Positions 13,251 through 52,407 are shown, numbered from the stretch's first letter. The stretch: 64,000 nucleotides of DNA from Bacteroidota bacterium (GCA_018698135.1 JABINZ010000028.1:3698-67697), one strand, 5' to 3'. Notes: generated by a model from the sequence alone, not told the origin. Numbers and translations: made by a program.

Positions 13251-13251
13251 G

Positions 13252-14218: not shown

Positions 14219-14221
14219 AAA

Positions 14222-17115: not shown

Positions 17116-17119
17116 CTAT

Positions 17120-18339: not shown

Positions 18340-18365
18340 CTTATTTAGATATAATAAGTTTCCAA

Positions 18366-20764: not shown

Positions 20765-20786
20765 ATTTTTCTTTTACTTAATCGAA

Positions 20787-28662: not shown

Positions 28663-28669
28663 TGCTGAA

Positions 28670-30121: not shown

Positions 30122-30136
30122 CTTTCTACATTAAGA

Positions 30137-30685: not shown

Positions 30686-30696
30686 TTTTTTCCTCT

Positions 30697-31395: not shown

Positions 31396-31425
31396 TTTTA
31401 ATGATTTTATCGTCCAAAAAATTAA

Positions 31426-33228
31426 TTATTCATGAAGATTAGGTACACGATTTACTGCTTTACATGATTCACTAACAGCTCTATCTAAATCAAAGCCGAA
31501 ATCAAATTCCTTATCTATTTGTACTTTTTCTTCGTAAAATCTTCTAAAATTCTTAATACTCGAAACAATTGGATTGGCAGCTGTTTGGCCTAATCCACAA
31601 CGACTGGCTTTTAAGTACTTGCTCCATTCTTTCAAGTTTTCTATATCAAGTGGAACACCTTGCCCATCGATGATTTTTTTCAATGTCTGACGCAATATAT
31701 AGGTCATGTCGCGACAAGTTGAACAAGATCCACATGATTCTTCAACAAAGAAATCGGTGAAATTCAGCACTACATCTTCTAATATATTCCTATCCTTACC
31801 AATAATAATCATGGATCCACCTGTTCCAAGATCTGAATAACAAATTGTACGCTCAAATTCGTTTTCCCCAATTAAAGTCCCTGAAGGTCCACCTACTTGA
31901 ATTGCTTGAACATTTTCTGCACCCACCATTTCCAACATATCAGCAGCACTAAATCCCCATTCAACTTCATAAATTCCAGGATAAGTGCAATCACCGGAAA
32001 TACTCAAGATTTTTGTACCAGTAGAATCTTTCGTACCAAATGATTTAAATGCATCAGGACCTTTTGTCATGATGTACACAGCAGCACAAAGTGTTTCAAC
32101 ATTATTTACAACAGTTGGTTTGCCTAAATATCCCTTTTCTACCGGGAATGGAGGTCTGTCTCGAGGTTCCCCTCTTTTCCCTTCAGCTGATTCAATTAAA
32201 GCTGACTCTTCACCACATACGTATGCTCCGGCACCAAACTGAATACGGATATCATAATCGAATCCATTTTTGCCTGCAATGTTTTTACCCAAAAATCCTT
32301 GGCTTCGCATATCGTAAAGAATATTTTCTAGATAATCTTTCAAATAGCGATATTCATAACGGAGATATAAAATTCCGGTTTTGGCTCCAATTGCATAACC
32401 AGCTATAACCATTCCTTCAAAGACCATGTATGCTTTCTCGGTTAAAATAACCCTATCCTTGAAAGTACCAGGTTCCCCTTCGTCTGCATTACAAAATACA
32501 TATCGTTCAGTTTCCTCACTTCTGCTGCAAAATTCCCATTTTAAACCAGTCGGAAATCCAGCACCACCACGACCTCGAATATTCGATTTCTTAATTGTAT
32601 CAATTACATACTTTGGATTCACCGAAGTAATTCTTTTAATGGAATCTCCAATTTTAAAATCAGATGAAAGAATAGGTCCTTTCTTTCTGATATTATTCAT
32701 GACCATGGAGTTTACGAGTATATTGGCATTCTGACCATCTCCATTTCCTTCGTTCACTATTTCATCCATTTGTTTTCCAGCCTTCATGTCTTTGATAATT
32801 TCTTTGGCTCGAAATGGAGTGAGTTTAGTAAAAATTTGCCCATTAATAATTGCGGAAGGCTCCTGATCATTCATGCCTATACAAGATGTATTGAATAAGC
32901 CGATTAATCCATCTTCTGTTACTGAACCAAATTGGCCGCCAGCTGTTTCTTCAAATGCCTGTGCTACTTTATCCCTACCCAACATACATGCAACAGCACT
33001 GTCGTTCAAGTAGATAGAATATTTTCCTTTAGGCACACAGGTAAAGAAATGATAGAAACTAATAGTTTGCATTACATCCACATTTGACAATTTCACTTGC
33101 TCAGCTATTATTTGAATAGCTTCTTCAGGAATATGACCAACTTCCTCTTGGATATCAATGAGAATATCCATGATTCTAGTTTTATCCTTTCCGTATTTGT
33201 CAAGTATGGGTTGAACAATAGATTTCAT
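31426..33228 (-). CDS. hoxF: Diaphorase NAD(H)/FMN subunit (NuoF-like with NuoE-like N-terminal domain)
   Basis: 600 aa. GRGGAGFPTG, GAGAYVCGEESAL and ESCGSCSTCR NuoF motifs. By my alignment the N-terminal 150 or so aa are NuoE-like but keep only 2 of the 4 cluster Cys. No separate hoxE. Confidence 0.85.
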   Translation of the reverse strand: MKSIVQPILDKYGKDKTRIMDILIDIQEEVGHIPEEAIQIIAEQVKLSNVDVMQTISFYHFFTCVPKGKYSIYLNDSAVACMLGRDKVAQAFEETAGGQFGSVTEDGLIGLFNTSCIGMNDQEPSAIINGQIFTKLTPFRAKEIIKDMKAGKQMDEIVNEGNGDGQNANILVNSMVMNNIRKKGPILSSDFKIGDSIKRITSVNPKYVIDTIKKSNIRGRGGAGFPTGLKWEFCSRSEETERYVFCNADEGEPGTFKDRVILTEKAYMVFEGMVIAGYAIGAKTGILYLRYEYRYLKDYLENILYDMRSQGFLGKNIAGKNGFDYDIRIQFGAGAYVCGEESALIESAEGKRGEPRDRPPFPVEKGYLGKPTVVNNVETLCAAVYIMTKGPDAFKSFGTKDSTGTKILSISGDCTYPGIYEVEWGFSAADMLEMVGAENVQAIQVGGPSGTLIGENEFERTICYSDLGTGGSMIIIGKDRNILEDVVLNFTDFFVEESCGSCSTCRDMTYILRQTLKKIIDGQGVPLDIENLKEWSKYLKASRCGLGQTAANPIVSSIKNFRRFYEEKVQIDKEFDFGFDLDRAVSESCKAVNRVPNLHE

Positions 33229-35994: not shown

Positions 35995-36258
35995 ATGTGT
36001 TTAAGTATACCGGCAAAAGTATTGGAAATTAAAGGCGAAATGGCAACAGTTTCAGTTGGTGGAACTGAATATGAAGCAAGTCTTCAAATAGTAGAAGATA
36101 TTCATGTTGGCGATTATGTATTGCTACATACAGGTTTTGCAATTCAGAAGCTCAGTGAGAAAGAAGCTCTTGAAACACTAAAGCTTTTTGATGAGTATGA
36201 AGAGTTAAATCAACGTTTAGATGAAGAGGAAAAAGAAACTGGCAAACGAATTACCTAA
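35995..36258 (+). CDS. hypC: Hydrogenase assembly chaperone HypC
   Basis: Starts MCLSIPAKV (the essential Cys2 motif). 87 aa. Confidence 0.9.
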   Translation: MCLSIPAKVLEIKGEMATVSVGGTEYEASLQIVEDIHVGDYVLLHTGFAIQKLSEKEALETLKLFDEYEELNQRLDEEEKETGKRIT

Positions 36259-36304: not shown

Positions 36305-37387
36305 GTGAAATATATTGATGAGTATAGAAATAAAGAAATAGTTCAATCTCTTCAGAAAAGGATTGAAAAAATTTCGACAAAGGAAGTCAGATTTATGGAA
36401 GTGTGCGGAGGACATACAATGTCTATTCAAAAATTTGGAATACCATCCCTCCTACCTTTAAACATTAAACTTCTATCAGGGCCTGGGTGTCCTGTTTGTG
36501 TTTCAAGTAGAAGTTATATTGATCAAGCCATCGCCTATTCACGCATGGAAAATGTAATTATTACCACCTTTGGGGATTTAATTCGTATACCTGGATCAAC
36601 CTCATCTTTGGAAAAAGAAAAAGCAAATGGAGCCGATATTCGCATAGTTTATTCTCCATTGGATGCGTTGGCTATTGCCAGAAGTAATTTGGATAAAAAA
36701 ATAGTTTTCCTCGGAATAGGTTTTGAAACTACCGCTCCCGGAAGTGCAGCATCTATAGTAACAGCTTATAATGAAAATCTAAAAAATTTCCTCTTGTTTA
36801 GCTCCCATAAAGTTATGCCTCCTGCTATGTCTGCATTAATTGATGAAGGAGTTAAAATTGATGGCTACATTGCCCCGGGTCATGTTAGTACCATAACCGG
36901 ACACAATATTTACCTCGATTTTCCCAAAAAATTTGGAATAGCCTGTGTTATTTCCGGCTTTGAACCAGTCGACCTTTTACAGTCCATTTATATGCTAGTA
37001 AAACAAGTTGAAGAAAATGATCCAAAAGTTGAAATACAATATCGGAGAGCAGTTAAAATGTCAGGAAATGAGAAAGCTTTGGCAATCTTAGATGAAGTTT
37101 TTGAACTCAGAGACGATTGGTGGAGAGGATTGGGAATTCTACCAAAAAGCGGATTAAAAATCAGGAATAAATATGCCGATTTCGATGCAGAAAGTGTTTT
37201 GCAAGTGGACGTTGAGCCAACAAGGGAAGACAAAGGTTGTTTATGTGGTGAAATTTTGAAAGGATTGAAAAATCCGAAAGATTGCAAATTATTTGGCAAA
37301 GGTTGTACGCCTTCAGATCCGGTTGGTGCATGTATGGTTTCCTCCGAAGGTGCTTGTCATGCCTATTATAAATACAATAGAGAATAA
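36305..37387 (+). CDS. hypD: Hydrogenase maturation FeS protein HypD
   Basis: GTG start giving MKYIDEYR (compare E. coli MRFVDEYR). MEVCGGHT, GPGCPVCV and C-terminal Cys motifs. Confidence 0.9.
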   Translation: MKYIDEYRNKEIVQSLQKRIEKISTKEVRFMEVCGGHTMSIQKFGIPSLLPLNIKLLSGPGCPVCVSSRSYIDQAIAYSRMENVIITTFGDLIRIPGSTSSLEKEKANGADIRIVYSPLDALAIARSNLDKKIVFLGIGFETTAPGSAASIVTAYNENLKNFLLFSSHKVMPPAMSALIDEGVKIDGYIAPGHVSTITGHNIYLDFPKKFGIACVISGFEPVDLLQSIYMLVKQVEENDPKVEIQYRRAVKMSGNEKALAILDEVFELRDDWWRGLGILPKSGLKIRNKYADFDAESVLQVDVEPTREDKGCLCGEILKGLKNPKDCKLFGKGCTPSDPVGACMVSSEGACHAYYKYNRE

Positions 37388-37391: not shown

Positions 37392-38402
37392 ATGGAAAAA
37401 ATATTATTAGGTCACGGAAGCGGTGGACAATTATCCCATGATTTAATCAAGGATTTATTTGTCAAACATTTTAATAATCAGACTCTGGATCAACAAACTG
37501 ATGCGGCTATTCTTGAAATTAATACAAAAAGTATATCCTTTACAACTGACTCATTTGTTGTAGATCCTATATTTTTCCCTGGTGGCGATATTGGCAAATT
37601 GGCGGTTTGTGGAACGGTAAATGACTTGGCAGTTTCGGGTGCTAAACCAAAATATATGAGTGCCTCCTATATAATTGAGGAAGGATTGCCTTATAAGGAT
37701 TTAGAAAGGATTGTCATCTCCATGGCCAATGAGGCTAAAATAGCAGGAATTAATATAGTTACTGGAGATACCAAAGTTGTGAATCGAGGAAAATGTGATA
37801 AAGTTTTTATTAATACGACTGGTGTTGGCGAAATTGAAGACAAATTCAAGGAAATTGGTAGTGGAAAAAATATTGAAATAGGAGATAAAATTATTATCAA
37901 TGGTACAATTGGCGATCATGGTATGTCGATTTTGAAAGCCAGGGAGTTGAACCGGTTCAAGGCAAATATTCAATCGGATTGTGCTTGCTTGAATAGTTTA
38001 ATATCAAAAGCACTTGAAATATCTGACAACATCCATTTCATGCGCGATGCTACCAGAGGAGGGCTGGCAACCGTTTTAAGTGAACTCGTTGAATCCAATA
38101 AATTTGGAATTGAACTATTTGAATCAGAAATCCCCATTCGTGAAGAAGTTCGTGGGATGTGTGAAATAATTGGTTTTGATCCTTTATACGTGGCTAATGA
38201 AGGCATCGTTTTAATGGTTCTTGGAAAAGATGATGCCGATCAGGTATTGGAAACGATACGAAAAGATGAATTAGGTAAGAATGCTGCTATCATTGGAGAA
38301 ATAACTGACAAACATCCAAGAAAAGGGTGGGTTCAAACTGAAATTGGTGGAAAGAGAATTATAGATATGCTGGCAGGAGAACAATTGCCGAGAATTTGCT
38401 AA
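37392..38402 (+). CDS. hypE: Hydrogenase maturation protein HypE
   Basis: AIR-synthase-like fold. C-terminal PRIC motif. Confidence 0.9.
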   Translation: MEKILLGHGSGGQLSHDLIKDLFVKHFNNQTLDQQTDAAILEINTKSISFTTDSFVVDPIFFPGGDIGKLAVCGTVNDLAVSGAKPKYMSASYIIEEGLPYKDLERIVISMANEAKIAGINIVTGDTKVVNRGKCDKVFINTTGVGEIEDKFKEIGSGKNIEIGDKIIINGTIGDHGMSILKARELNRFKANIQSDCACLNSLISKALEISDNIHFMRDATRGGLATVLSELVESNKFGIELFESEIPIREEVRGMCEIIGFDPLYVANEGIVLMVLGKDDADQVLETIRKDELGKNAAIIGEITDKHPRKGWVQTEIGGKRIIDMLAGEQLPRIC

Positions 38403-39761: not shown

Positions 39762-40103
39762 ATGCACGAGCTATCCATTGCCATGAATATTGTTGAAATT
39801 GCTGAAGAAGAAGCACAAAAAGCTGGATCTACTAAAATAAAGAAAATTGAACTTGCTGTTGGAAAACTTTCGGGAGTAGTATATGAAGCTTTGGACTTTG
39901 CATTAAAGGAAGCTGTTAAAAACTCGATGTTAGAAGAAGCTGAAATATTAATTCATGAAATAGAAGGTGAGTCAAAATGTTTAAAGTGCTATCATATATT
40001 TGCTACGGAAAACATATTTGATATATGTCCTAAATGCAATCATACTCAGTGCGAAACCATTCAAGGTAAAGAACTTAAAATCAATTCTCTTTTTGTTGAT
40101 TAA
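39762..40103 (+). CDS. hypA: Hydrogenase nickel-insertion protein HypA
   Basis: MHELSI N-terminal Ni motif. Zn site CLKC...CPKC. 113 aa. Confidence 0.9.
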   Translation: MHELSIAMNIVEIAEEEAQKAGSTKIKKIELAVGKLSGVVYEALDFALKEAVKNSMLEEAEILIHEIEGESKCLKCYHIFATENIFDICPKCNHTQCETIQGKELKINSLFVD

Positions 40104-40638: not shown

Positions 40639-42255
40639 GTGATCTCACAAAGAAAACAAAAGAATATAATTGTAACTGGTGCTTCTGGTTTTGTTGGAAA
40701 ATATTTCATTGATTATATCAAAGAAGAATACAATGTTATTGCCATTGCACGAAGATCCCAAAATGAATCAGGAATAAGTTATCACCCCAATATTCATTGG
40801 GTACAATGGGATATTGCAAATACTTCATTTTTAAATCAGGTATTGGGATTTATTATTGCAAAAGGATGTGCTGATTTTATTGTGCATTTAGCAGGATACT
40901 ATAATTTCAACTATAAATACCACCCAGAATATGAACGCACAAATGTTTTAGGGACTAAAAACGTTTTGGAATTAGCCAAAAAGCTGAATATCAAACGATT
41001 CCTTTTTTCAAGTTCTTTAGCCGCTTGTAGTTTTGATAATAAAGATCGACTAATTAATGAAGAAACCGAAGCTGATGCACATTTTGATTATGCGATTAGT
41101 AAAAAGAAAGGAGAAGAACTGGTAAAACTTTACACACCTCATTTCAGTATTTCTATAATACGTTTTGCGGCTGTTTTTAGCGATTGGTGTGAATATCCTC
41201 CTCTTTATAAATTCCTAAGTACTTGGTTAAAAAAAGGATATGACAGCAGAATATTAGCAGGTAAAGGATTTTCAGGAGTAAGTTACATTCATATTTATGA
41301 TTTAGCACGCTTAATGAAAACAGTGCTGAAAAAACATGAAGAATTGCCAATTGATTCAACATATGTGGCAAGTCCAGATGGTAGCTCTACACATCTTGAT
41401 TTATTTAAAATATCGACTAAGGATTACTTTGGAAAAGAAAGACGACCAATTTTTCTTCCAAAATTCTTAGCATATCCTGGAATTCTTGTTAGGATTTGGA
41501 TGGGAAAGCTGAAAATTACCCCACCATCTTTCGAACAATTGTGGATGGTGAAATACATAAATGACCAATTAAAAGTCGATGCATCAAAAACAAGAAAAGA
41601 ACTAAATTGGGATACGACTCCACGATATCACATTTTGAGGCGACTCTTGTTTTTATTAGTCAATATGAAATCACACAAACAAGAATGGGACTCAAAGAAT
41701 GAAGCCAGCCTGAATAGATGGTCAATGCGTCCTAGCTTAAAGATTTATGAGCATATGCTTCAAATGCAAGATCATATTCTTAAAAAGGTAAGAATCTGTA
41801 TTATTGATGATGAAGAAAAAACCGAATTTGCCAATTTCAGATCATTAGGTAAAGTGGAATTTGATCAATATGTGAGTCAGATTTATCATTTGATAATGGC
41901 AACCGTTCGAAGCAGTGACCGAAGTTTGATGCTGGAATATATTGGAGATATTGCTGTTGACCGATTTGCAACTGGTTTTGATTTCGAAGAATTAAGTGAT
42001 TTCTTCCTATGCATTAATAAAATCATAGTTGAAGAAATGTTACAAATACCTGAATTAAGCAAACTGAAACAAGAAGTTTATGATAGTATAGAGCTGAGTA
42101 TTCAGATGGCTATTGATGAAATGGCTGACACCTATGAGAATCTGGAAATTAAGTTAACTCCTGAGAAATTAACAAAATTAAGATCTTTAAAAGATCAGAA
42201 AATGAGAGCGATAATGATTGAAAAACTAAGTGCGTTTTATCAGGAGAATGAATAA
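40639..42255 (+). CDS. Extended SDR (NAD-dependent epimerase/dehydratase family) with an unassigned C-terminal domain of about 200 aa
   Basis: GTG start. VTGASGFVG Rossmann motif. YAISK (YxxxK) catalytic pair. I recognise no motif in residues about 340-538. Confidence 0.65.
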   Translation: MISQRKQKNIIVTGASGFVGKYFIDYIKEEYNVIAIARRSQNESGISYHPNIHWVQWDIANTSFLNQVLGFIIAKGCADFIVHLAGYYNFNYKYHPEYERTNVLGTKNVLELAKKLNIKRFLFSSSLAACSFDNKDRLINEETEADAHFDYAISKKKGEELVKLYTPHFSISIIRFAAVFSDWCEYPPLYKFLSTWLKKGYDSRILAGKGFSGVSYIHIYDLARLMKTVLKKHEELPIDSTYVASPDGSSTHLDLFKISTKDYFGKERRPIFLPKFLAYPGILVRIWMGKLKITPPSFEQLWMVKYINDQLKVDASKTRKELNWDTTPRYHILRRLLFLLVNMKSHKQEWDSKNEASLNRWSMRPSLKIYEHMLQMQDHILKKVRICIIDDEEKTEFANFRSLGKVEFDQYVSQIYHLIMATVRSSDRSLMLEYIGDIAVDRFATGFDFEELSDFFLCINKIIVEEMLQIPELSKLKQEVYDSIELSIQMAIDEMADTYENLEIKLTPEKLTKLRSLKDQKMRAIMIEKLSAFYQENE

Positions 42256-42258: not shown

Positions 42259-42756
42259 TTAAACCAGTACTTGATTTTCTCTCAAACTTATATGATGCAC
42301 CCATTGCTTCACTTGATTCAAAATTTCATTGAATGATTCTCTAAGCTTAATGCTTAATTCAGAACCAAACTCTAAGTATACATCAACTTCAATAGAAATC
42401 ACAAACACATTCTCAGGAATTTCAAATCCAATATTTTTCCAAAATGTAAAACAATCCTGAAATTTCATTTCGTGTATATTGGTCAAATGGAGTGTTTCTT
42501 TAAAATTGGTGATTTCATTTATTTCAATATATCCAGGAGGATTTGTTCTTTGAATAGTACCATCAATAAATACAACTGTGTTATATTCTGAGAGTTTTTT
42601 CCCCATATCAAGATTAAAGAGCAGTTCTGTATGGTAATGATGATTTTGAAAATAAGGATCGCTGGAAAGATAATCGACAATTTTCACACCCACACCATCA
42701 TCTGTTAGGATATCACTCCCCATTCCTACAATTAATATGTTGCTATTTTTACACAA
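42259..42756 (-). CDS. [NiFe]-hydrogenase maturation endopeptidase (second copy)
   Basis: ILIVGMGSDILTDDGVG motif. Directly abuts the mvhA-like stop. Confidence 0.75.
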   Translation of the reverse strand: MCKNSNILIVGMGSDILTDDGVGVKIVDYLSSDPYFQNHHYHTELLFNLDMGKKLSEYNTVVFIDGTIQRTNPPGYIEINEITNFKETLHLTNIHEMKFQDCFTFWKNIGFEIPENVFVISIEVDVYLEFGSELSIKLRESFNEILNQVKQWVHHISLRENQVLV

Positions 42757-44220
42757 CTACTTGCGCTGAATTGTTCGAATAATATGACCATCCGGTTGTC
42801 TGAAATTCACCTTCATCGGCATTTTACCTGGCTGAAAATGAGTAGCACATGAAAAACAAGGATCATAAGCACGAAATGCCATTTCTATCATATTCAAGAT
42901 TCCTTCAGAAACTGTTTCTCCTTTCTTAATTAAGCCTTGAGCTGCTTTTTTCAACGACATGCAAATAGCAGCATTATTATTTGTTGTTCCAACAATAATA
43001 TTGGCCTTGGTAACAATGCCTTTATCATCGGTCCAATAATGATGCGTTAGTGTTCCTCGTTGTGCTTCAACAGTACCAACACCTTCAGTTGGAGTTTTTG
43101 TTAATTCTTGTCTCAAATTTGTGCCAACAATATCAGGATCTTGTGCTAACTCAAGTGCATATTCTGCTGAATAGAGTAATTCAACTAATCTGGCCCAATG
43201 CATGGCAAGTGTTGCATGAACAGGTTTTCCGCCTAAAATATGATACATTCTTTCATATTCAGCTTGAGCTAAAGGAGTTGCCATTCCATCTGCTGCATTC
43301 AAACGAGATAATGGTGTGGCATGATATACACCTGAATCTTGTCCATCAACAAATCCTTTCCATCCTTTTTTCTTGAGATAAGGAAATTTTAAATAACTCC
43401 ATGGTTCTACCCTTTCTTCCACATAATCCCTATAATCGGCTGGAGCATATTTATACAATTCTTTCCCTACTGTGTCTACAACTCTTAACTTTCCATCATA
43501 AAAATTGACTTTGTTGTTTTCATCTACCAATCCCATTGAATGAATATTCAAATTATATGGACCATTAACTATGATATCTACATAATCTTTATTGGCTAAA
43601 ACAACATCATCAAAAATCTTCAATGAAAACTTAGCAAAATCAATAAAACCTTTTGCTTTTTCAACAATATCAACTCTTTGCTCTTCGGTTAAGCCTTTAC
43701 GAACTCCACCCGGTATATTCATCACCACATGGGTTTGATGCCCACCCAATAATGCCTGGATTTCCTGCGCAATTCTTCTTTGCTTGATAACCTCTGTTCC
43801 AATTTCAACTCCGACTTTTCCTATTACACCAAGTATGTTTCTTTCAGCCGGACTGGCAGTTGGACCTACTACAAAATCGGGTGCAGCCAATGCATAAAAG
43901 TGTGCAATATGACTATGCACAAAATGAGACATATAGAATAATTCGCGCAGTTTTTTTGCTGTAACAGTTGGTTCAACACCATAAACCATATCGGCAGCTT
44001 TACCACTTGCCATGTGATGACAACCAGGGCAAACACCACAAATCTTTGTTACAATCTGAGCTAATTCTTCAACAGGTCTTCCTTCACAGAATTTTTCGAA
44101 ACCACGTAATTCAGGAACCTGAAAATACACATTATCGACATCACCTTCATCAGTCAGGAAAATTTCAATTTTCCCATGTCCTTCTAGCCTTGTGATAGGA
44201 TCTATAGTAATTCTTTTCAT
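42757..44220 (-). CDS. mvhA: Cytoplasmic [NiFe]-hydrogenase large subunit, Mvh/group 3c type
   Basis: KICGVCPGCHH and DPCFSCATH Ni motifs with a cleavable tail. Operon with mvhG, mvhD and hdrA-like genes. Confidence 0.85.
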   Translation of the reverse strand: MKRITIDPITRLEGHGKIEIFLTDEGDVDNVYFQVPELRGFEKFCEGRPVEELAQIVTKICGVCPGCHHMASGKAADMVYGVEPTVTAKKLRELFYMSHFVHSHIAHFYALAAPDFVVGPTASPAERNILGVIGKVGVEIGTEVIKQRRIAQEIQALLGGHQTHVVMNIPGGVRKGLTEEQRVDIVEKAKGFIDFAKFSLKIFDDVVLANKDYVDIIVNGPYNLNIHSMGLVDENNKVNFYDGKLRVVDTVGKELYKYAPADYRDYVEERVEPWSYLKFPYLKKKGWKGFVDGQDSGVYHATPLSRLNAADGMATPLAQAEYERMYHILGGKPVHATLAMHWARLVELLYSAEYALELAQDPDIVGTNLRQELTKTPTEGVGTVEAQRGTLTHHYWTDDKGIVTKANIIVGTTNNNAAICMSLKKAAQGLIKKGETVSEGILNMIEMAFRAYDPCFSCATHFQPGKMPMKVNFRQPDGHIIRTIQRK

Positions 44221-45191
44221 AATACTTTCCTCCTTAAAATTGAACCGGGCAAACTAAATCTATAAAATGTTCCGGCAGGATCATCAATTGTATCAACAAC
44301 AGCAGCAATTTCTTCTGGTTTATCACCATCAATCATGGTGGCTACAGCACTTAACATTTTAGAACCGGGGTCAGGTACATCTTCGGGTGGACCATAACAA
44401 CCCCGACAGGGGGCATTTCCTTCAATGCACCTAACTCCGCAGCCTCCGCGAGTAGCTGGCCCCATGCAAATAACTCCCTGTTCAAGGAAGCAAGTTTCAC
44501 CATCATCTACTATATCAATCGGGCGTTTAAATTCTCTAATTTTTTTATTATCTGTTTTCGTTCTTTTACACTCATCACATTGAGACTTATTTAATGCCCC
44601 AATTACTGATCCTGCTGGAGGTAATTCAGCTCCTGTAACAATTGCTAAAAACACTTCAACTAAGCGTTCTGTTTGAGGTGGACAACCTGGTAAGTAATAA
44701 TCTACTTCAACAACCTGATCAAGCGTACGAACATCATTGTAGAACTCCGGTAATTCGAGGACACCTTCTTTCACTTTGTGTTTTTGTTCTGGTCGAATGT
44801 TATCTGGATTAACAGTTGATTCAGTCGTTTCATATACACGTTTGAGCAATTCTTCTTTGCTGGTAAAATTAGCTAATCCAGGAATTCCTCCCATATGAGA
44901 ACAACTGCCATAGGCTACCAATACTTTGGTTTTTGCTCTTAACAATTTAGCCATGTGCTCGTTTTCGCTATTTCGAACAGCTCCATTAAACAAACATAGA
45001 TCAATATGTCCATCAGGCATTGCTTCAACATCCTTGTATTTAATATCCAATGCAATTGGCCAAAATACCAAATCTGCATGTTCAACTACAGTAAACAGTT
45101 TTTCATGAACATCAAGTACAGAGACACAACAGCCACCACAAGCTGCTCCCCAATAAACTGCCATTTTTATTTTTGGTTTTGTTTCTACCAT
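44217..45191 (-). CDS. mvhG: [NiFe]-hydrogenase small subunit, Mvh type (no Tat signal)
   Basis: GAACGGCCVSVLD proximal-cluster motif. Additional Cys-rich C-terminal part. 4-nt overlap with mvhA. Confidence 0.8.
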   Translation of the reverse strand: MVETKPKIKMAVYWGAACGGCCVSVLDVHEKLFTVVEHADLVFWPIALDIKYKDVEAMPDGHIDLCLFNGAVRNSENEHMAKLLRAKTKVLVAYGSCSHMGGIPGLANFTSKEELLKRVYETTESTVNPDNIRPEQKHKVKEGVLELPEFYNDVRTLDQVVEVDYYLPGCPPQTERLVEVFLAIVTGAELPPAGSVIGALNKSQCDECKRTKTDNKKIREFKRPIDIVDDGETCFLEQGVICMGPATRGGCGVRCIEGNAPCRGCYGPPEDVPDPGSKMLSAVATMIDGDKPEEIAAVVDTIDDPAGTFYRFSLPGSILRRKVL

Positions 45192-45200
45192 TTTTCTAAT

Positions 45201-45626
45201 TTACGCTAATGTTTCAACGACTTCTTTAACTTTACAAGGACCCAATTCTTTGATATTCTCAGTGAATTCGTCTGCTAATGCTGAAAAGATTTTTCCTTCA
45301 CTAGCACTAATCCATTCCAACCTGATTCTATCTTTTTCGATCCCCATTTGATCAATAAACTTTTCTAATAATGTGAATCTTCTGAGGCATTTATAATTGC
45401 CTTCATGATAATGGCAATCACCCGGATGACAACCGCAAATCAGCACACCATCAGCTCCTTGACGGAATGCTTTCAAAACGAAAGTAGGATCAACACGCCC
45501 AGAACACATAATTCGGATTATTCTGATATTAGGTTCATATTTCATTCTGGATGTTCCTGCCAAATCAGCACCTGTATATGAACACCAATTGCAAAGAAAT
45601 GCGACAATTTTAGGATTAAAACTCAT
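45201..45626 (-). CDS. mvhD: MvhD/FlpD-type [2Fe-2S] hydrogenase delta subunit
   Basis: 141 aa. FLCNWCSY...MCSGRV...[11 protein letters not shown] matches the MvhD pattern. Confidence 0.85.
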
Positions 45627-45654
45627 TTTACTCTCCTTTCAAATTAATAGTCAA

Positions 45655-47379
45655 TTAAAGCGCTTCTTCAGCAATATACATCTCCATTAAACCTTCAATC
45701 TGAGACATTATTTGCTTATCTGTAAAGTGTTTGCTGGCAATTGCTCCACTTGGACAAGCAGAACCACACGTACCACATCCTTTACATAAGATTTCGTTTA
45801 CATAAGAAACATTTTTTTCTTCATTATAGCTGATTGCAGTATAAGGACACACATTTACACAGGTTTGGCAACCACAACATTGGTCTTCATTTACTACTGC
45901 GGTGGTAACCTCTACAAATACTTTTCCCTGATTTATGGTTGCCAATACTCTGGCAGCTGCTGCTTTTGCCTGACTGACAGAATCGGGAATGTCTTTGGGT
46001 CCCTGACAGCCCCCCACTATATAAACACCATCTGTTGTTGTGGCAACCGGATCAAGTTTTGGATGCTTTTCAATGTAGAAATCATTTCCACACATACTAA
46101 TTCCTACCGCATGGGCTATTTTTTTTGCATCAACCTGTGCTTCAACACCAACCATTAGGACAACTAAGTCAGCTGGTACTTCAACAGATTCTCCAGAGAG
46201 TCTTTCTTCCATAATTACATACATGGAACAATCACTTCCTTTTGATGCTTTAACAACAGTTGGCATTTCATCTTTCTGATCGAACATCAGAAAAACAACT
46301 CCTTGTCTGGATGTTTTTGTATATAATTCTTCACATCCTTTTCCGAAAGCTCTCATATCAGAATAAAGTTCAAATACGTTTGTATCTGGCAAAGTCGATT
46401 TTATCTGGTTAGAGAATTTCAAAGCAGTCATGCAACAATTCCTTGAACAGTACTCATGTGTAATCTCATTTCGAGATCCTACACAATGAATAACAGCAAT
46501 ATTTTTAGGAGTTTTTCCTTCTTTTGTAAGGATTTCTCCTTTTTGAAGCATTTTTTCGAACTCTACCGATGTCAATACATCTGGGAGACGGTTGTAGGCA
46601 TAGTTACCTAGATTTGTTGGATCTATAGATTTTAATCCTGTTGCAACTATTACATTTCCAAATTCAAGTTCCCGATTATTAATGGTTGATTTAAAGTTTC
46701 CAATATATCCAAATACTTCGTCAACTTCAGAATTAAAAAAGACTTCAATTTTCTCATTATTCTCAACACTCTTTATCATCATTGCTAGCATTTGCTGAGC
46801 ACTTTGAAAATAAGGAAAAGTGAGATCAATGTTTTTTGCATGTCCTCCAAGCTTATCAGATTTTTCAATTAGATATACCTGTCTACCTGAATTTGCAATC
46901 TCTAAAGCAGCAGATATACCTGCTACTCCACCTCCAATAATCATGGTTTTTGAATCTATTTCAACAGATCGCTTCTCCAAAGCTTCATGGAATTGAACTT
47001 TGTTTATAGCAGCAGCTAACAAACTTTTAGCTTTTTTGGTTGCTGCATCCCTATCCAAATGTACCCATGACACTTGCTCCCTAATATTGGCCATTTCAAA
47101 CATGTAAGGATTCAGACCGGCATTTTCCAGTGCTTTTCTAAAAGTAAGCTCATGTATTCGTGGTGAACATGCTGCAACTACAATTCGGTTCAATTTATTC
47201 TCCTTAATATCCTTAACAATTAAATCTTGTCCAGGATCGGAACACATATATTTATAAGTCTTTGATAGTGCTACATTGGGCAAGCTCGCAATTTCTTCTG
47301 AGACTTTCTCAACATCAACCATTTTGGCAATATTGGTTCCGCACCAGCAAACATATACACCTATTCTAATTTCTTCCAT
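45655..47379 (-). CDS. hdrA: HdrA/QmoB-like FAD FeS flavoprotein (paralogue 2)
   Basis: Cys-containing N-terminal domain (VCWCG...MCSDPG...AACSPR). GGGVAGISAALE FAD motif. HCVGSR...YCSRNCC HdrA signature. C-terminal 2x[4Fe-4S] (CCGCQTCVNVCP, CKGCGTCGSACP). No inserted ferredoxin domain. Confidence 0.8.
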   Translation of the reverse strand: MEEIRIGVYVCWCGTNIAKMVDVEKVSEEIASLPNVALSKTYKYMCSDPGQDLIVKDIKENKLNRIVVAACSPRIHELTFRKALENAGLNPYMFEMANIREQVSWVHLDRDAATKKAKSLLAAAINKVQFHEALEKRSVEIDSKTMIIGGGVAGISAALEIANSGRQVYLIEKSDKLGGHAKNIDLTFPYFQSAQQMLAMMIKSVENNEKIEVFFNSEVDEVFGYIGNFKSTINNRELEFGNVIVATGLKSIDPTNLGNYAYNRLPDVLTSVEFEKMLQKGEILTKEGKTPKNIAVIHCVGSRNEITHEYCSRNCCMTALKFSNQIKSTLPDTNVFELYSDMRAFGKGCEELYTKTSRQGVVFLMFDQKDEMPTVVKASKGSDCSMYVIMEERLSGESVEVPADLVVLMVGVEAQVDAKKIAHAVGISMCGNDFYIEKHPKLDPVATTTDGVYIVGGCQGPKDIPDSVSQAKAAAARVLATINQGKVFVEVTTAVVNEDQCCGCQTCVNVCPYTAISYNEEKNVSYVNEILCKGCGTCGSACPSGAIASKHFTDKQIMSQIEGLMEMYIAEEAL

Positions 47380-47389
47380 ACATCTATTT

Positions 47390-48580
47390 TTATGCAGCTT
47401 GAGCTATTTCAATTTTATGATTTCTCTTGTAAGCAGCTTTCTTCAATCGTGAAAAATAGGCCGCAAAAGGACGATAGGCTAAGTGTGACCACTTTGAGAA
47501 TGGTACTTCCACAACTATCATAGGAACCAGTATTGCTAAGTGAATAACAAATGTAAAATATGTGGCAACAGGTAATCCCGTTAATCTAAAAATATGAATA
47601 AGAATCCCTGTTATTGTTGTTAAACCCAAAAGAATAAGAAATAACCAATCGGATACATGTGAATATTCAAATTTCACATCACTCTTTTTAAATCGACCTA
47701 TTGCTGTATACACCAGAAAGAACAACAATCCAAATGTGGCATAATAACCAAGTATTCTTTGCCAGTTATACCAAGGCTTAACTTCTTCAATTTGAAACTT
47801 GGGAAGCAACGCAACAATTACAGTAAACATGATTGTATAGCTAGTCATTAGTAGTAAATGACCAATCCAATAATTCTTTTTATCACATTTTGAGAACTTT
47901 GGTTGGGCTACAAAGTTGAAGAGCAAATGCCAGGCTTCCACAAAGTAGGAATAAAGCGGTATTCTAATACTCTTATCCTTTAAAATAACTTTATTGTACA
48001 TATTTAATATATTAGAGATAAGCAGCAATGCAACTAAAATAGCCATTGTAAGGTCTCCAATTTCAACAAAGTGTAAAAACTCAATATTTGTTATACCGTT
48101 TACAAGACTATTAATCATAACTCCTCCTTGATCGTTAATAAACGATTCAGGATTTGTAAAAATTGCTTTCGCAGGAGGAAGGAAAACAGCAAAAAGAGCA
48201 ATAACCAATAAGGCAAAAAAGCCGAGAAATCCATATTCCCATTTATGAGATGTGTAGAATTTCTTACTCAAACCAGTCCAATCATAAACCGATGTCAGAT
48301 ACCTTCTTAATGTCATCATTAATTCTCCCGGATTCGCATCGCGTGGACAAGTTTGGGAGCATTCTCCACAATAATAACAAAGCCATGGATCTACATTCAT
48401 GGTTAACTTATCTTTCAATCCCATTTGTATTTGTCGAATTCCTTTTCGCGGAAACAAAAATCCATTTTCTGTTAAAGGACAAATAGCTGTACAATTTCCA
48501 CAATGAAAGCAATCGTTCCATTCACTAATTCCATAGGACTTTAATTCCTTTTTTAAATCTGTATTTATAGTATACCTCAT
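47390..48580 (-). CDS. QmoC-like fusion: HdrC-type 2x[4Fe-4S] domain + HdrE/NarI-like membrane (haem b-type) domain
   Basis: N-terminal CFHCGNCTAICP and CYYCGECSQTCP, then about 6 TM helices with conserved-looking His (WHLLF, GHLLL, IHIF, VIHL). 4-nt overlap with the upstream hdrA-like gene. Confidence 0.7.
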   Translation of the reverse strand: MRYTINTDLKKELKSYGISEWNDCFHCGNCTAICPLTENGFLFPRKGIRQIQMGLKDKLTMNVDPWLCYYCGECSQTCPRDANPGELMMTLRRYLTSVYDWTGLSKKFYTSHKWEYGFLGFFALLVIALFAVFLPPAKAIFTNPESFINDQGGVMINSLVNGITNIEFLHFVEIGDLTMAILVALLLISNILNMYNKVILKDKSIRIPLYSYFVEAWHLLFNFVAQPKFSKCDKKNYWIGHLLLMTSYTIMFTVIVALLPKFQIEEVKPWYNWQRILGYYATFGLLFFLVYTAIGRFKKSDVKFEYSHVSDWLFLILLGLTTITGILIHIFRLTGLPVATYFTFVIHLAILVPMIVVEVPFSKWSHLAYRPFAAYFSRLKKAAYKRNHKIEIAQAA

Positions 48581-50379
48581 GATTTAACCTCCGTGATTAA
48601 TTCATTGACACGATTTTCAATATCTTTAAATGATAGGTCGAATACACTTTTTTCAACTTTATTATTGATTATATTTTGCAATACTCTCGAAGCTGCGGCA
48701 GATGCTTGTGCTACTGTATCAGGAATATCTTTTGGCCCCTGACAAAGTCCGGCAATGGAAACTCCACCACTGTTTGTATTCACAGGATCGCTTAAGGAAT
48801 TGGATTCATTATACCAGCCATTACCGTCTTGTGTAATTTTTAGCATTTTTGCCAATTCAGAAGCTTTGTTAGCTGGTTCCAAACCAACAGCCAGAATTAC
48901 CATGTCCAATTCATCTTCCAGCATTCGATCGTTTAGCATATCCTCACTTCTCAACAAAAGCTTTTCACCTTTTTGCTTTATTGTTGCAGTTTTGCCTCTG
49001 ATCATATTAATTCCCTCAGTTTTAATACGCTCATAAAACTCTTCGTAACCTTTTCCAAATGCGCGCATATCAATGTAATATTCATTTATTATTGCATCTG
49101 GAAGTTTTTCTCTCACCAAATGAGCAAGTTTTAATGAATACATGCAGCATACTTTCGAACAATATTTATTATTGTTTTCATCCCTGCTACCAACACAGTG
49201 AATAATGCCTACACTTTGGGGTTCACCATTGCCTTCTTTAAAAACCCAATTTCCTTTTTTATCTTTCTTACGATAAGTGATATTACCTTCTGTGGGTCCA
49301 GCAGCATTAATCAACCTCTCAAATTCCAATGAAGTCAGAACGTTGGGAAATTGACCATATCCATATCGTTCGATTTTTTTTGCATCGAAAACTTTAAATC
49401 CGGTAGCCAAAATGATATTCCCAACATTAATCTCAATTTCAGAATCTTTCTCATCTAAATTGATACAATCCGGAACTGGACAAATTTTTACACATACTCC
49501 ACATTTCCCATTTTCAACATAGGTGCAATTATCAGCATCAATCAAATACTTATTTGGTACTGCTTGTGGAAATGGAATATAAATAGCTTTTCGTAAGCTA
49601 GTATCTGCATCAAATTCACTAGCAGCCTTTCGGGGGCATTTTTCGGCACAATTACCACAACCTATGCATGTAGAAATATTAACTCTTCTTGCCTTTTTGT
49701 TAATCTTAACTTTAAAATCACCAGCATCACCTTGTACCTCTTTTAACTCAGAATAAGTGATTAGCTCAATATTAGGATGTTGACCGACATCAACCATTTT
49801 TGGCGTTAAAATACAAGCTGCACAATCAAGCGTTGGGAATGTTTTATCGAACATTGCCATGTGTCCTCCAATAGTTCCTGATTTTTCGAGTAAGTAAACC
49901 TTTTGACCTCCATTTGCAATTTCCAATGAAGCCTGAATGCCTGCAATACCTCCTCCAATTACTAAAGTATCTTTGTTTACAGTATTATGTCCTGGTTTTG
50001 CAACTTCTCGAAAATCCAAACCATTTACTGCGCATAGTAATACCGCTTTAGCCATTTCTGTAGATTGCCCATTGAATAAAGCATGTTCAGAAAAACTGGC
50101 CAGAGCAAGTTTTTTATGATCCAAGCCTGCTAACTTCATCGCCAAGTCAATTTTGTTCTTAATCAATCCTGGATAATCACCGGCAATAACAATTTTTTCA
50201 ACACCTGATGATTTAAATAAGGATGCAAGATCTGAAGCAGTTAGTTCTAACACTTTCCCTATCCATACCTGTTCAACTGATGGAATGGATTTCGCATATT
50301 CGATGATGACATCATTATTGAACAAGCTGGCATATTCACTATTGGAGTCATAATAACAAATACCAATTTTTACACGCAT
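48577..50379 (-). CDS. hdrA: HdrA/QmoA-like FAD FeS flavoprotein (paralogue 1)
   Basis: GGGIAGIQASLE FAD motif. FPTLDCAACILTPK. Inserted ferredoxin domain (CIGCGNCAEKCP, CGVCVKICP). HCVGSRD...YCSKVCC signature. N-terminal domain lacks the Cys set and there is no C-terminal ferredoxin domain. Confidence 0.8.
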   Translation of the reverse strand: MRVKIGICYYDSNSEYASLFNNDVIIEYAKSIPSVEQVWIGKVLELTASDLASLFKSSGVEKIVIAGDYPGLIKNKIDLAMKLAGLDHKKLALASFSEHALFNGQSTEMAKAVLLCAVNGLDFREVAKPGHNTVNKDTLVIGGGIAGIQASLEIANGGQKVYLLEKSGTIGGHMAMFDKTFPTLDCAACILTPKMVDVGQHPNIELITYSELKEVQGDAGDFKVKINKKARRVNISTCIGCGNCAEKCPRKAASEFDADTSLRKAIYIPFPQAVPNKYLIDADNCTYVENGKCGVCVKICPVPDCINLDEKDSEIEINVGNIILATGFKVFDAKKIERYGYGQFPNVLTSLEFERLINAAGPTEGNITYRKKDKKGNWVFKEGNGEPQSVGIIHCVGSRDENNNKYCSKVCCMYSLKLAHLVREKLPDAIINEYYIDMRAFGKGYEEFYERIKTEGINMIRGKTATIKQKGEKLLLRSEDMLNDRMLEDELDMVILAVGLEPANKASELAKMLKITQDGNGWYNESNSLSDPVNTNSGGVSIAGLCQGPKDIPDTVAQASAAASRVLQNIINNKVEKSVFDLSFKDIENRVNELITEVKS

Positions 50380-50621
50380 AAAACTATATTTAGTTCATTT
50401 TATATCAATTTTGTTATGGAGAGATTTGGAAGGATTGGTATATGGTTGAGCTTAAATAGGGTATCAGGTTAATTCTCTCAAATAACAGTGGATTTAACAC
50501 TAAAAATCCAACGTAATTTTACTATCAAAACACATGTCTAAAAATGACATGTCTCAAAAAAAAAACTGATATTAATCAGAAAAACCAAATGAATATTTAT
50601 AGAGCTGTAGTTTTCAATAAC

Positions 50622-51332
50622 TTAGCAATCAATATTGCTAATTTTCATTAAACCAAAAAAATCAAGAACGATAATACTTCTTCCGTTAATACTAATTAAT
50701 CTTGCTTCTTTGAATTCCTTAAGTATTCGAATAACGGTTTCGGTTGCTGAACCCACCGAATTAGCTAAATCTTCACGAGAGATACGAAGTTCGAACTGAG
50801 TATTTGAATCGTCACTTTTATAGGTGTTTACAAGAATCAAAAGCGATTCAGCTACACGCTGCCTAACAGTTTTTAAAGCAATAGAAGCCATGCGCGTTTC
50901 CGCTTCTTCTAACATTCTACTTAATGAAATAAGCATATAGTTTGTTAGATTTGGATATTTCATAATCAAATGAAATATCTTCCTATTATTTATAAAACAA
51001 ACCAATGAATCCTCAATTGCCGTAGTTGTCGTGGTATATTTTGAACCTTCTATAACTGCTTTAATTCCAAAAAGCTGACCAGGAGCAATAAATTGTATTA
51101 TTTGTTCTTTGCCATTTTCCCCGTTTCTAAATTTCTTTATTTTGCCACTATTTACACAATAAAGACCATTGGGACTGGTTCCTTCATGATAAATAGTTTG
51201 GTTTCTTTTGTAGAGAGTGCAGGTTTTCTCAATACTCAAATCACGCAAATCCTCATCAGAAAGGATGTTAAAATAGGTTTTAAACCTTACATCACATTCT
51301 TTGCAGCTTGGTTTTTCAAATACTGATTTCAT
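50622..51332 (-). CDS. Crp/Fnr-family transcriptional regulator (second copy) with N-terminal CxxC
   Basis: cNMP-binding-like domain plus HTH (ANSVGSATETVIRILKEF). C10-x2-C13, plus Cys near residues 59 and 112, positions shared with 4991..5704. Confidence 0.8.
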   Translation of the reverse strand: MKSVFEKPSCKECDVRFKTYFNILSDEDLRDLSIEKTCTLYKRNQTIYHEGTSPNGLYCVNSGKIKKFRNGENGKEQIIQFIAPGQLFGIKAVIEGSKYTTTTTAIEDSLVCFINNRKIFHLIMKYPNLTNYMLISLSRMLEEAETRMASIALKTVRQRVAESLLILVNTYKSDDSNTQFELRISREDLANSVGSATETVIRILKEFKEARLISINGRSIIVLDFFGLMKISNIDC

Positions 51333-51588
51333 TTTTTCAGATTTGAATTAGTCATTAAAAATGTTAAAATGCTAAATATATCGGCTTACGGTTTCATAAA
51401 GCATTGATATGCATTCAGTTTGCCTAATGTGGGCATTTCTTGAAGTTAAAGTTAAGTAGAAAAATCATTAAAAAACATGACTTAGATCAGTTTTTGCATA
51501 TCTTATACTTAATATGCTGATTTATATCATGTTTAGCTATCTCTTGAAGAGAATAGTATAAATATTCGTTTTTATGCCTTCAATAAAA

Positions 51589-51618: not shown

Positions 51619-52407
51619 ATGTGTGGAGATTGCGGATGCGGCCAAGAAGATGGTATTAGAATTACAAAACCAGGAACAGAACATAGTCATTCTCATCATG
51701 AGCATGATCATCAACATAACCATGGCGATGATCACCACCATCACCATGATGAAAGTGGTCGAGAAATAAAGCTGGAGCAAAACGTTTTACAAAAAAATGA
51801 TTTATTAGCAGAACGAAATCGTGGATTTTTCGAAGCTAAGAACATTTCTTGTCTCAATTTAGTCAGTTCACCTGGATCAGGAAAAACAAGCTTGCTGGAG
51901 AGAACGATTAAAGAATTTGGTGCCGAAATTGATTTTTATATCATTGAAGGTGATCAGCAAACATTAAATGATGCCAACCGTATACAACAGGCTGGTGCTC
52001 CTGTTGTTCAGGTTAATACTGGGAATGGCTGTCATCTTGATTCTGATATGATCAATAAGGCAATTAAACAATTGAACCCTAAACAGGATTCAATGCTGAT
52101 TATTGAAAATGTTGGCAATTTGGTATGCCCTGCAATGTTTGATCTGGGTGAAAAGAAAAGAGTTGTGATCATCAGCGTTACAGAAGGAGAAGATAAACCT
52201 TTGAAATATCCAAACATGTTTGAGGGTTCACAATTATGTATCATCAATAAAACTGATTTAAGCCCTTATGTTGATTTTGATATAGAAAAAGCAAAGAAAT
52301 ATGCCTTACAAGTAAATCACAACATGGAGTTTATTGAGCTATCTGTTAAAACAGGTGATGGAATTGATAAATGGTACAAATGGTTAAAGGAAGAGGCTAA
52401 TTCATAA
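51619..52407 (+). CDS. hypB: Hydrogenase nickel-incorporation GTPase HypB with His-rich N-terminus
   Basis: MCGDCGCG high-affinity Ni motif. HSHSHHEHDHQHNHGDDHHHHHDE stretch. GSPGSGKT P-loop. ENVGNLVCP. Confidence 0.95.
   Translation: MCGDCGCGQEDGIRITKPGTEHSHSHHEHDHQHNHGDDHHHHHDESGREIKLEQNVLQKNDLLAERNRGFFEAKNISCLNLVSSPGSGKTSLLERTIKEFGAEIDFYIIEGDQQTLNDANRIQQAGAPVVQVNTGNGCHLDSDMINKAIKQLNPKQDSMLIIENVGNLVCPAMFDLGEKKRVVIISVTEGEDKPLKYPNMFEGSQLCIINKTDLSPYVDFDIEKAKKYALQVNHNMEFIELSVKTGDGIDKWYKWLKEEANS

Follow-up and report, generated by a model that had tools for sequence, protein, structure and literature searches.

A 64,000-nucleotide (nt) stretch of DNA from a Bacteroidota bacterium, hereafter called the window, carries on its minus strand an operon (42259..50379) in which a putative Mvh-type [NiFe] hydrogenase is encoded together with two HdrA-like flavoproteins and a QmoC-like membrane subunit. 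Judged from gene content and sequence motifs, there is about an even chance that the products of this Mvh-Qmo operon form one membrane-attached H2:menaquinone/ferredoxin bifurcating complex, in which the electrons of H2 would be split between menaquinone and ferredoxin.

Gene content and hydrogenase module

As shown in Table 1, calling of open reading frames (ORFs) gave seven co-oriented and closely packed genes running from 50379 down to 42259 in the order hdrA1-qmoC-hdrA2-mvhD-mvhG-mvhA-protease. The junctions, taken from the coordinates in gene order, are -4, 10, 28, 9, -4 and 0 nt. In a hydropathy scan six transmembrane (TM) segments were predicted for the QmoC-like protein, while the other six proteins had none, so the hydrogenase is expected to be cytoplasmic and the QmoC-like subunit to be the sole membrane contact. 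Pfam and NCBIfam models detected no CCG domain (that of HdrB, with the heterodisulfide site) in the operon proteins. When queries from a sat-aprBA-qmo locus were used in tblastn, no homologue of Sat, AprA or AprB was found in the 64-kb window, and the matches of an HdrD/CCG query were confined to the ferredoxin-like parts of that query. With neither CCG/HdrB nor apr or sat in the operon, no acceptor sites other than those for quinone and ferredoxin are evident.

The large subunit contains the motifs RLEGHG, ICGVCPGCH and AYDPCFSCATH, followed by a C-terminal extension. Its L1 (KICGVCPGCH) and L2 (RAYDPCFSCATH) fit the published definition of MvhA, in which L1 is ICGxCxxxH and L2 is AYDPCxxCATH (PMC6085437). 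Among solved structures the top match was MvhA 5odc_F (395 bits), followed by 7t2r_D (353 bits) and the Hox-type 5xf9_D (322 bits). The second large subunit encoded in the window was used as a control, and here the order was reversed (526 bits for 5xf9_D against 386 for MvhA). The NCBIfam VhuA model failed to tell these two large subunits apart, so its score was not relied on. The small subunit matched MvhG 5odc_E over its full length (residues 8-318 against 2-293, 233 bits) and the Hox small subunit with 68 bits. Unlike the short 3d-type small subunits, it is of full MvhG length, and it has neither a twin-arginine translocation (Tat) signal nor a TM helix. The gene for MvhD lies directly upstream of mvhG. 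MvhD matches positions 647-775 of the model NF040770 and is 32% identical to the C-terminus of QmoB from an Apr-linked locus (L009, sat-aprBA-qmoA-qmoB-hdrD-qmoC); by sequence it is the counterpart of the MvhD domain found fused at the C-terminus of QmoB and of HdrA2-family proteins. By its motifs, its nearest structures and the MvhD/MvhG context, the hydrogenase is classified as Mvh-type and as a putative member of group 3c.

The seven-gene order, overlaps and gaps of the original prediction agree with the ORF coordinates and the family matches. Its Mvh-type hydrogenase, two HdrA-like proteins and QmoC-type membrane subunit were all confirmed at the sequence level. The large subunit was Mvh-like by motifs and nearest structures, as expected for the predicted group 3c, and the predicted absence of HdrB/CCG, apr and sat from the window was borne out by the tblastn and domain searches. 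No HdrBC or AprAB partner was encoded within the 64 kb.

Table 1. Coordinates of the Mvh-Qmo operon and of other features of the window.
Feature	Position	Strand	Remarks
HdrA-like 1 (HdrA1), QmoA-type flavoprotein	48577..50379	-	600 amino acids (aa); Pfam/NCBIfam, 5odc_A alignment, motifs
QmoC-like membrane subunit	47390..48580	-	396 aa; NCBIfam qmoC NF038018, HdrC matches
HdrA-like 2 (HdrA2), QmoB-type flavoprotein	45655..47379	-	574 aa; Pfam/NCBIfam, 5odc_A alignment, motifs
MvhD, [2Fe-2S] adaptor	45201..45626	-	141 aa; PF02662, 190.8 bits
MvhG-type [NiFe] hydrogenase small subunit	44217..45191	-	324 aa; VhuG, 223 bits
MvhA-type [NiFe] hydrogenase large subunit	42757..44220	-	487 aa; VhuA, 375 bits
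Hydrogenase maturation endopeptidase	42259..42756	-	165 aa, TTG start; TIGR00072, 58 bits, above the cut-off of 47.45
Crp/Fnr-family transcriptional regulator	50622..51332	-	Fnr/Crp models, under cut-offs
FNR/CRP-type palindrome TGATTAATATCA	50567..50578	.	regulator-hdrA1 intergenic region
Second TGAT-N4-ATCA palindrome	51518-51529		divergent region, Crp/Fnr-family gene to hypB
hypB, nickel insertion GTPase	51619..52407	+	divergent from regulator gene
hypF	33726-35981	+
hypC	35995-36258	+
hypD	36305-37387	+
hypE	37392-38402	+
hypA, nickel metallochaperone	39762..40103	+
Hox-type [NiFe] hydrogenase operon	28153-33228	-	linked to nicotinamide adenine dinucleotide (NAD)
Hox operon, NuoE/NuoF fusion	31426-33228	-
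Hox operon, HoxU-like	30697-31395	-
Hox operon, short small subunit	30137-30685	-
Hox operon, large subunit	28670-30121	-	best PDB match NAD-reducing hydrogenase 5xf9_D
Hox operon, own protease	28153-28662	-
rnfBCDGEA, ferredoxin:NAD+ oxidoreductase	16543-21776	-	complete; 21 kb from Mvh-Qmo operon
PsrABC/PhsABC-like quinol-dependent molybdoenzyme	238-4101	-
Psr/Phs-like, catalytic subunit	1861-4101	-	PhsA, 478 bits, below cut-off
Psr/Phs-like, 4Fe-4S subunit	1331-1864	-
Psr/Phs-like, NrfD membrane subunit	238-1230	-

Flavoprotein pair and membrane subunit

Both flavoproteins match the HdrA model NF040770 (543 and 589 bits, each under its cut-off). Their modules were compared by alignment to methanogen HdrA (5odc_A, 8rvu_a) and by motif scans. 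HdrA1 aligns to residues 58-571 of the 654-residue 5odc_A, and HdrA2 to residues 1-234 and 318-650. The motif for flavin adenine dinucleotide (FAD) and the CxGSR...CSxxCC cluster motif are present in both. The N-terminal domain of HdrA2 has the cluster cysteines C11, C13, C46 and C71 (CxCGxN, CxDPG and CSPR), while that of HdrA1 is recognisable but vestigial, with the cluster cysteines and all three motifs gone. HdrA1 has the DCxxC motif (C194/C197 in 5odc), in place of which HdrA2 has QSAQQ, and it also has the inserted 2x[4Fe-4S] ferredoxin domain, which is absent from HdrA2. The C-terminal 2x[4Fe-4S] ferredoxin domain is present in HdrA2 and absent from HdrA1. The gene after hdrA1 is qmoC and that after hdrA2 is the separate mvhD; the NCBIfam HdrA2 model spans HdrA2 (up to position 642) and MvhD (647-775) as one unit. 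Despite 35-50% sequence divergence, every orthologous locus showed exactly this complementary module pattern.

The same split of modules is found between QmoA (440 aa) and QmoB (735 aa, with MvhD fused) of locus L009. HdrA1 is 35% identical to this QmoA and HdrA2 is 29% identical to this QmoB, and both flavoproteins are nearer to methanogen HdrA (444-520 bits) than to the L009 proteins (273 and 226 bits). Judged by these modules, HdrA1 and HdrA2 are a QmoA/QmoB-type pair from which MvhD has been split off. The original prediction was right about the presence of two HdrA-like proteins, but the pairing of a QmoA-type with a QmoB-type protein with complementary modules had been overlooked.

The QmoC-like protein matches the NCBIfam qmoC model NF038018 over its full length (residues 8-374 against 4-358 of 360, 188.6 bits). 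Its N-terminal HdrC-like domain has eight invariant cysteines, enough for 2x[4Fe-4S], and aligns to HdrC of solved Hdr complexes. Among 125 close homologues H241, H308, H347 and H366 never vary, and H329 is conserved in 98%. Among 78 representatives of the whole QmoC family, including the canonical QmoC P0245, H241, H347 and H366 are kept in 96-99% and C232 in 88%, while conservation of H308 and H329 is restricted to the near clade. Comparison of the family TM profile with Escherichia coli NarI using hhalign (E = 2.8e-4, 41% probability) aligned the last three helices only. This weak alignment puts H347 on NarI H187 and H366 on NarI H205, both of which are haem ligands in the NarGHI structure. 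The histidines of the TM domain, which had been predicted to include haem ligands, are thus kept in the orthologues, and two of them align with these NarI residues. Because the subunit is homologous to QmoC, for which a cytochrome b joined to an HdrC-like domain has been described (Ramos et al.), it is likely to bind haem b. The fourth haem ligand may be H308, H329, M251 or C232.

Distribution, relatives and genomic setting

About 4,000 proteins are homologous to the QmoC-like protein at E ≤ 1e-5. Identity to it is 59-72% in the best 120 clusters, some of which lie on contigs of up to 4.1 Mb, and the taxa named among these 120 are Bacteroidales, Marinifilaceae, Marinilabiliaceae, Sphingobacteriales and Bacteroidota. 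A scan of a genome collection, queried with the single QmoC-like protein, returned 6 loci. The full order hdrA1-qmoC-hdrA2-mvhD-mvhG-mvhA-protease was found in two Bacteroidales loci (L001 and L006), in Marinifilaceae (L002), in a metagenome-assembled genome of Calditrichia (L004) and on a 4.1-Mb contig (L016). It is retained in the truncated loci of Porphyromonadaceae (L003) and Mariniphaga (L005) and in three further truncated loci (L008, L014 and L017). Shared by at least ten other loci, the order is far from anything that chance would give; the arrangement is genuine, is maintained by selection and is common among anaerobic Bacteroidota. A mis-assembled mixture of hdr and qmo genes was ruled out, as contigs as long as 4.1 Mb show this order too. 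In L004, hdrA2 (about 9476-9520) and mvhA (about 13424-13434) are split by frame changes, which are probably indel errors of long reads and not signs of pseudogenes. The flanks of the orthologous loci contained neither apr nor sat, and no conserved candidate partner gene was found beside the operon in the loci examined. Because the flanking genes vary between loci, the operon looks self-contained.

In a neighbour-joining tree without support values, the QmoC of the window groups with hydrogenase-linked forms, sister to the Apr-linked QmoC proteins P0126 and P0130, and canonical QmoC is distant. The nearest QmoC relatives not linked to a hydrogenase (44-46% identity) are encoded in sat-aprBA-qmo operons. 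Other relatives have other partners. Locus L011 (201-10352) encodes a QmoC-like protein, a 288-aa FAD/2Fe-2S protein, a NuoF-like protein (624 aa), a 1081-aa HdrA-like fusion, MvhD, an MvhG-like protein and a [NiFe] large subunit, which suggests a QmoC-linked, NAD(H)-connected variant of the hydrogenase cluster. In L018 (1685-4000) a 771-aa fusion protein combines a QmoC-like domain with an HdrD-like Fer4+CCG module and is, by its domains, a putative membrane-anchored disulfide-reductase-type relative. In L015 a distant QmoC homologue lies beside multihaem cytochrome genes. Given these varied gene partners, the QmoC anchor is a reusable membrane module.

The nearest published counterpart is the Mvh-Qmo-Hdr cluster of the Archaeoglobi Candidatus (Ca.) Methanoglobus nevadensis and Ca. 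M. hypatiae (bioRxiv 10.1101/2022.12.01.518715 and 10.1101/2023.09.08.556235). Electron flow among H2, ferredoxin and menaquinone was speculated for it by Buessecker et al.; the name Mvh-Qmo-Hdr, high transcription in Ca. M. hypatiae and the hypothesis that H2 is bifurcated to menaquinone and ferredoxin come from Lynes et al. By its published description, that cluster, like the operon of the window, contains MvhA, MvhG, MvhD, two HdrA homologues (one of them classified as QmoB by DiSCo) and QmoC (HdrC plus cytochrome b), and it has neither AprAB, Sat nor HdrB; the proposed function is also the same. However, Ca. Methanoglobus is an archaeal, thermophilic methanogen whose menaquinol is thought to feed HdrDE, whereas the host of the window is a mesophilic-type member of Bacteroidota with Rnf, Hox and Psr-like enzymes. 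The bifurcation idea has therefore been published before for an archaeal counterpart, and on sequence grounds the function is plausible for the window.

The genome paper of Caldithrix abyssi reported heterodisulfide reductase genes of unknown function upstream of a group 3c hydrogenase (Cabys_1914-1916). Here too, Hdr-like genes precede a group 3c hydrogenase, and the bacterium belongs to the Fibrobacteres-Chlorobi-Bacteroidetes (FCB) group, but the enzyme was called soluble and ferredoxin-dependent, and a membrane subunit is unmentioned in that paper. In Dissulfuribacter an 'HdrAC2-MvhAGD' cluster, described without its two middle genes, was more abundant with H2 and sulfite; it may be the arrangement of the window. 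The literature searched, which did not take in the HdrA review of Appel et al. 2021, contained no description of the spread of the cluster in Bacteroidota.

Like methanogen MvhADG-HdrABC (PDB 5ODC), the Mvh-Qmo operon has the hydrogenase module, the MvhD adaptor, the HdrA-type FAD and cluster motifs and an HdrC-like two-cluster domain, and the MvhADG-HdrABC structures were the best PDB matches for five of its subunits. Unlike that complex, it has no HdrB and no heterodisulfide site. A heterodimer replaces the HdrA homodimer, with no single polypeptide containing all four HdrA domains, and HdrC forms one polypeptide with a six-helix membrane domain, by which the complex would be membrane-bound. 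The division of modules between QmoA and QmoB and the architecture of QmoC are those of the type I QmoABC of sulfate reducers and green sulfur bacteria. However, the window has no aprBA or sat, its MvhD is separate and not fused to QmoB, the gene order is A-C-B and a complete hydrogenase is attached; unlike the QmoA of L009, HdrA1 retains a vestigial N-terminal domain. 'Type II' Qmo proteins (Neukirchen et al. 2023) are closer to HdrA, occur with or without Apr/Dsr and have been assigned no role (PMC10504309). By this description the flavoproteins of the window, nearer to HdrA than canonical QmoAB, fit type II; the supplementary tables of that paper, which deal with Dsr-containing genomes, contained nothing on a cluster of the window type.

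The original prediction is to be amended in two respects. The arrangement, regarded there as looking unusual for Bacteroidota, is widespread in them according to the synteny survey. The cluster, for which earlier characterisation had been left undecided, was published with the same content and hypothesis for Ca. Methanoglobus between 2022 and 2024, and Hdr genes upstream of a group 3c hydrogenase were noted in C. abyssi. What is new here is the wide bacterial distribution, the complementary QmoA/QmoB-type anatomy, the relationship to Apr-linked QmoC and the conserved control of Crp/Fnr type.

The gene for a Crp/Fnr-family regulator lies directly upstream of hdrA1 in the same orientation, a position shared by L001, L006 and L016. 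Of the 4 TGAT-N4-ATCA palindromes in the 64-kb window, 2 flank the regulator gene (Table 1). In L001, L006 and L016 similar boxes precede hdrA1, whereas L002 and L004, both without the regulator gene, have none there. From this arrangement the regulator probably controls expression of the operon. A direct repeat, GAGACATGTCA / TAGACATGTG, is located between the FNR-type box and hdrA1 (50520-50560, minus-strand reading) and may be a second regulator site; a comparable pair, CATGTCA / CATGACA, is found upstream of hdrA1 in L001.

Taken as a whole, the window is an island of genes for hydrogen metabolism. In addition to the Mvh-Qmo operon it contains hyp genes, of which hypFCDE probably also serve the second hydrogenase, as well as a Hox-type hydrogenase operon and a complete rnf operon. 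The Psr/Phs-like enzyme is a possible menaquinol sink. Because Psr/Phs-like and NrfD/HmcC-type proteins are encoded, a quinone pool and quinol-consuming reductases are implied.

Several other features of the window were recorded. A four-gene set (11296-15925, minus strand) encodes two proteins with a GcvH (lipoyl-carrier-like) domain, one of 567 aa and one at 11296-12006, together with a Fer4_11 iron-sulfur protein (13252-14121) and an HmcC/NrfD-type membrane protein (11985-13250). The pairing of two GcvH-like proteins with a membrane redox module is odd, and we know of no other case. The genes for a sigma-54-dependent response regulator (6330-7673) and two AtoS/ZraS-like sensor kinases (7683-9347 and 9452-11083), all on the minus strand (6330-11083), separate the Psr-like genes from these NrfD/GcvH genes. 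Two genes for Fe/Mn superoxide dismutase (22552-23163 and 23591-24166, minus strand) lie near each other in a region that otherwise looks like that of an anaerobe. Encoded at 40639-42255 on the plus strand is a 538-aa protein with an N-terminal domain like those of short-chain dehydrogenases/reductases (SDR) and epimerases and a C-terminal half that had no family match; its gene and the protease gene are convergent, with 3 nt between them. GldB is also encoded in the window, which speaks for its origin in Bacteroidota.

Proposed electron flow and its alternatives

Flavin-based bifurcation of electrons from H2 to menaquinone and ferredoxin would be the most parsimonious account of this gene set. 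In the scheme we propose, H2 would be oxidised at MvhA and the electrons would pass through MvhG to the [2Fe-2S] cluster of MvhD. From there they would reach an interface [4Fe-4S] cluster, formed by the cysteines of the HdrA2 N-terminal domain and one cysteine of the HdrA1 DCxxC motif, C186 or C189, and then move through the CxGSR/CSxxCC cluster to the FAD of HdrA1, where the pair would be bifurcated. The low-potential electron would leave through the inserted ferredoxin domain of HdrA1 to soluble ferredoxin or flavodoxin, and the high-potential electron would travel through the C-terminal ferredoxin domain of HdrA2, the two QmoC clusters and haem b to menaquinone. In this scheme MvhD would dock on HdrA2, and the iron-sulfur domain of QmoC would come within 14 Å of the clusters in the C-terminal ferredoxin domain of HdrA2. 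The branches are assigned in this way because in methanogen Hdr the inserted ferredoxin domain is described as the low-potential branch and the HdrA and HdrC clusters as the high-potential branch (PMC13518236). With oxidised and reduced ferredoxin written Fd(ox) and Fd(red), menaquinone MK and menaquinol MKH2, the net reaction would be 2 H2 + MK + Fd(ox) -> MKH2 + Fd(red). Menaquinone, with a potential of about -75 mV (Ramos et al.), would take the place of the heterodisulfide of MvhADG-HdrABC, to which it is thermodynamically comparable as a high-potential acceptor. The reduced ferredoxin could be used by Rnf, encoded 21 kb away, and the menaquinol by quinol-dependent reductases such as the Psr/Phs-like enzyme of the window.

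Several points weigh against this proposal. HdrA2 retains FAD and cluster motifs that have no role in the scheme. The dimer-interface cluster is reportedly a feature of the HdrABC-MvhAGD structure of Wagner et al. 2017, and it does not come from a model of the window complex. The QmoC-like protein, at 188.6 bits, stays below the NCBIfam equivalog cut-off of 300, whereas the canonical representative P0245 reaches 393 bits on the same model. Three family-wide histidines are fewer than the four required for two bis-His haems, and the link of the TM domain to NarI is weak (41% probability in hhalign). A narrower profile of 43 sequences gave no match to E. coli NarI in hhalign, and the isolated TM domain had no match to the NarI family PF02665 in Pfam, a model that the canonical QmoC TM domain itself matches with merely E = 0.039. 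In a Foldseek search with an AlphaFold2 model (predicted local distance difference test, pLDDT, 77) only HdrC was recovered, for the N-terminal domain, and neither NarI nor any other solved cytochrome b; a search of PDB sequences found no solved Qmo structure. Quinone binding is assumed by analogy, being taken over from canonical QmoABC. The search for acceptors covered the 64-kb window, and an unlinked partner gene may lie outside it. In addition, the literature searched contained no biochemical characterisation of any member.

These points leave room for other functions. Unlikely, in our estimate, is a cytoplasmic H2:menaquinone oxidoreductase that does not bifurcate, in which both electrons would go to menaquinone, no ferredoxin would be reduced and the inserted domain of HdrA1 would be a relay or a vestige. 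Electron transfer from H2 to menaquinone is strongly exergonic alone, but about 340 mV would be wasted, and two FAD sites and a complete set of HdrA-type cofactors are a high price for a plain electron wire. The degenerate N-terminal domain of HdrA1 shows that modules of the pair can decay; the inserted ferredoxin domain, on the other hand, keeps all eight cluster cysteines in every orthologue across 50-65% sequence divergence, which argues for function. We also counted in favour of such an enzyme that not every HdrA-containing complex is said, in the abstract of a review on HdrA, to be thought to bifurcate. A complex working in the opposite sense to bifurcation, in which H2 (via Mvh) and menaquinol (via QmoC) would together reduce a soluble, unlinked partner docked on the QmoA-type subunit as AprAB is, seems similarly improbable. 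No conserved partner gene stands beside the operon in the loci examined, apr, sat and CCG genes were not found in the window, and the variable flanks point to a self-contained unit. The precedent lies in the Apr-linked systems: a hydrogenase has been proposed as co-donor for Qmo-AprAB, QmoA contacts AprAB (Ramos et al.), the nearest non-hydrogenase relatives of this QmoC belong to sat-aprBA-qmo operons, and an HdrD/CCG module adjoins or is fused to QmoC in some relatives.

We consider it very unlikely that the enzyme runs in reverse as an H2-evolving valve, confurcating reduced ferredoxin and menaquinol to H2 at low H2 partial pressure for redox balance in fermentation or syntrophy. Group 3 hydrogenases are reversible and many carriers are fermentative Bacteroidota, but the thermodynamics are marginal: by our own estimate the mean of ferredoxin (about -500 mV) and menaquinol (-75 mV) is about -290 mV, which makes the reaction feasible only near 10 Pa H2. 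Moreover, the Hox-type NAD-linked hydrogenase and Rnf of the window can already dispose of reductant, and quinol-consuming reductases are encoded nearby. An equally slim chance is given to a QmoC-like subunit that exchanges no electrons with quinone and is either a membrane anchor only or a transmembrane conduit to a periplasmic acceptor. A quinone site is not recognisable by sequence, and the unrecovered NarI-type fold, the merely three family-wide histidines and the single distant homologue beside multihaem cytochrome genes (L015) would all be consistent with such a subunit. Its homology to QmoC extends over the full length, however, the purified canonical complex was reported to interact with a menaquinone analogue, and no gene for a periplasmic cytochrome is found in or beside the operon in the loci examined.

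The function of the MvhD domain of QmoB has been called enigmatic (Ramos et al.), and the hydrogenase-linked version offers a natural explanation for it. A bolder proposal, possible in our view though doubtful, is that the operon represents the ancestral state of Qmo, a hydrogenase-docked and quinone-reducing HdrA heterodimer. The MvhD domain of QmoB would then be a relic of docking, and the complex, widespread in anaerobic Bacteroidota, would be the first HdrA-type bifurcating enzyme with a membrane quinone as high-potential acceptor.

If the bifurcating function is correct, many Bacteroidota from sediments, digesters and gut-related habitats could oxidise H2 in the cytoplasm. For every two H2 they would gain one menaquinol, usable in anaerobic respiration, and one reduced ferredoxin, which could serve ion pumping by Rnf or biosynthesis. 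H2 turnover in anoxic communities would have to be reassigned, since Bacteroidota are usually scored as H2 producers only. The MvhD domain of QmoB would be given a reason, and H2 would provide a defined donor for testing bifurcation against confurcation by Qmo, a question open since QmoABC was described. Compared with the archaeal enrichment cultures that first drew attention to the cluster, its bacterial hosts may be more readily grown. If the operon is indeed the ancestral form of Qmo, it would represent an unrecognised route from H2 to menaquinol and reduced ferredoxin in anaerobic Bacteroidota.

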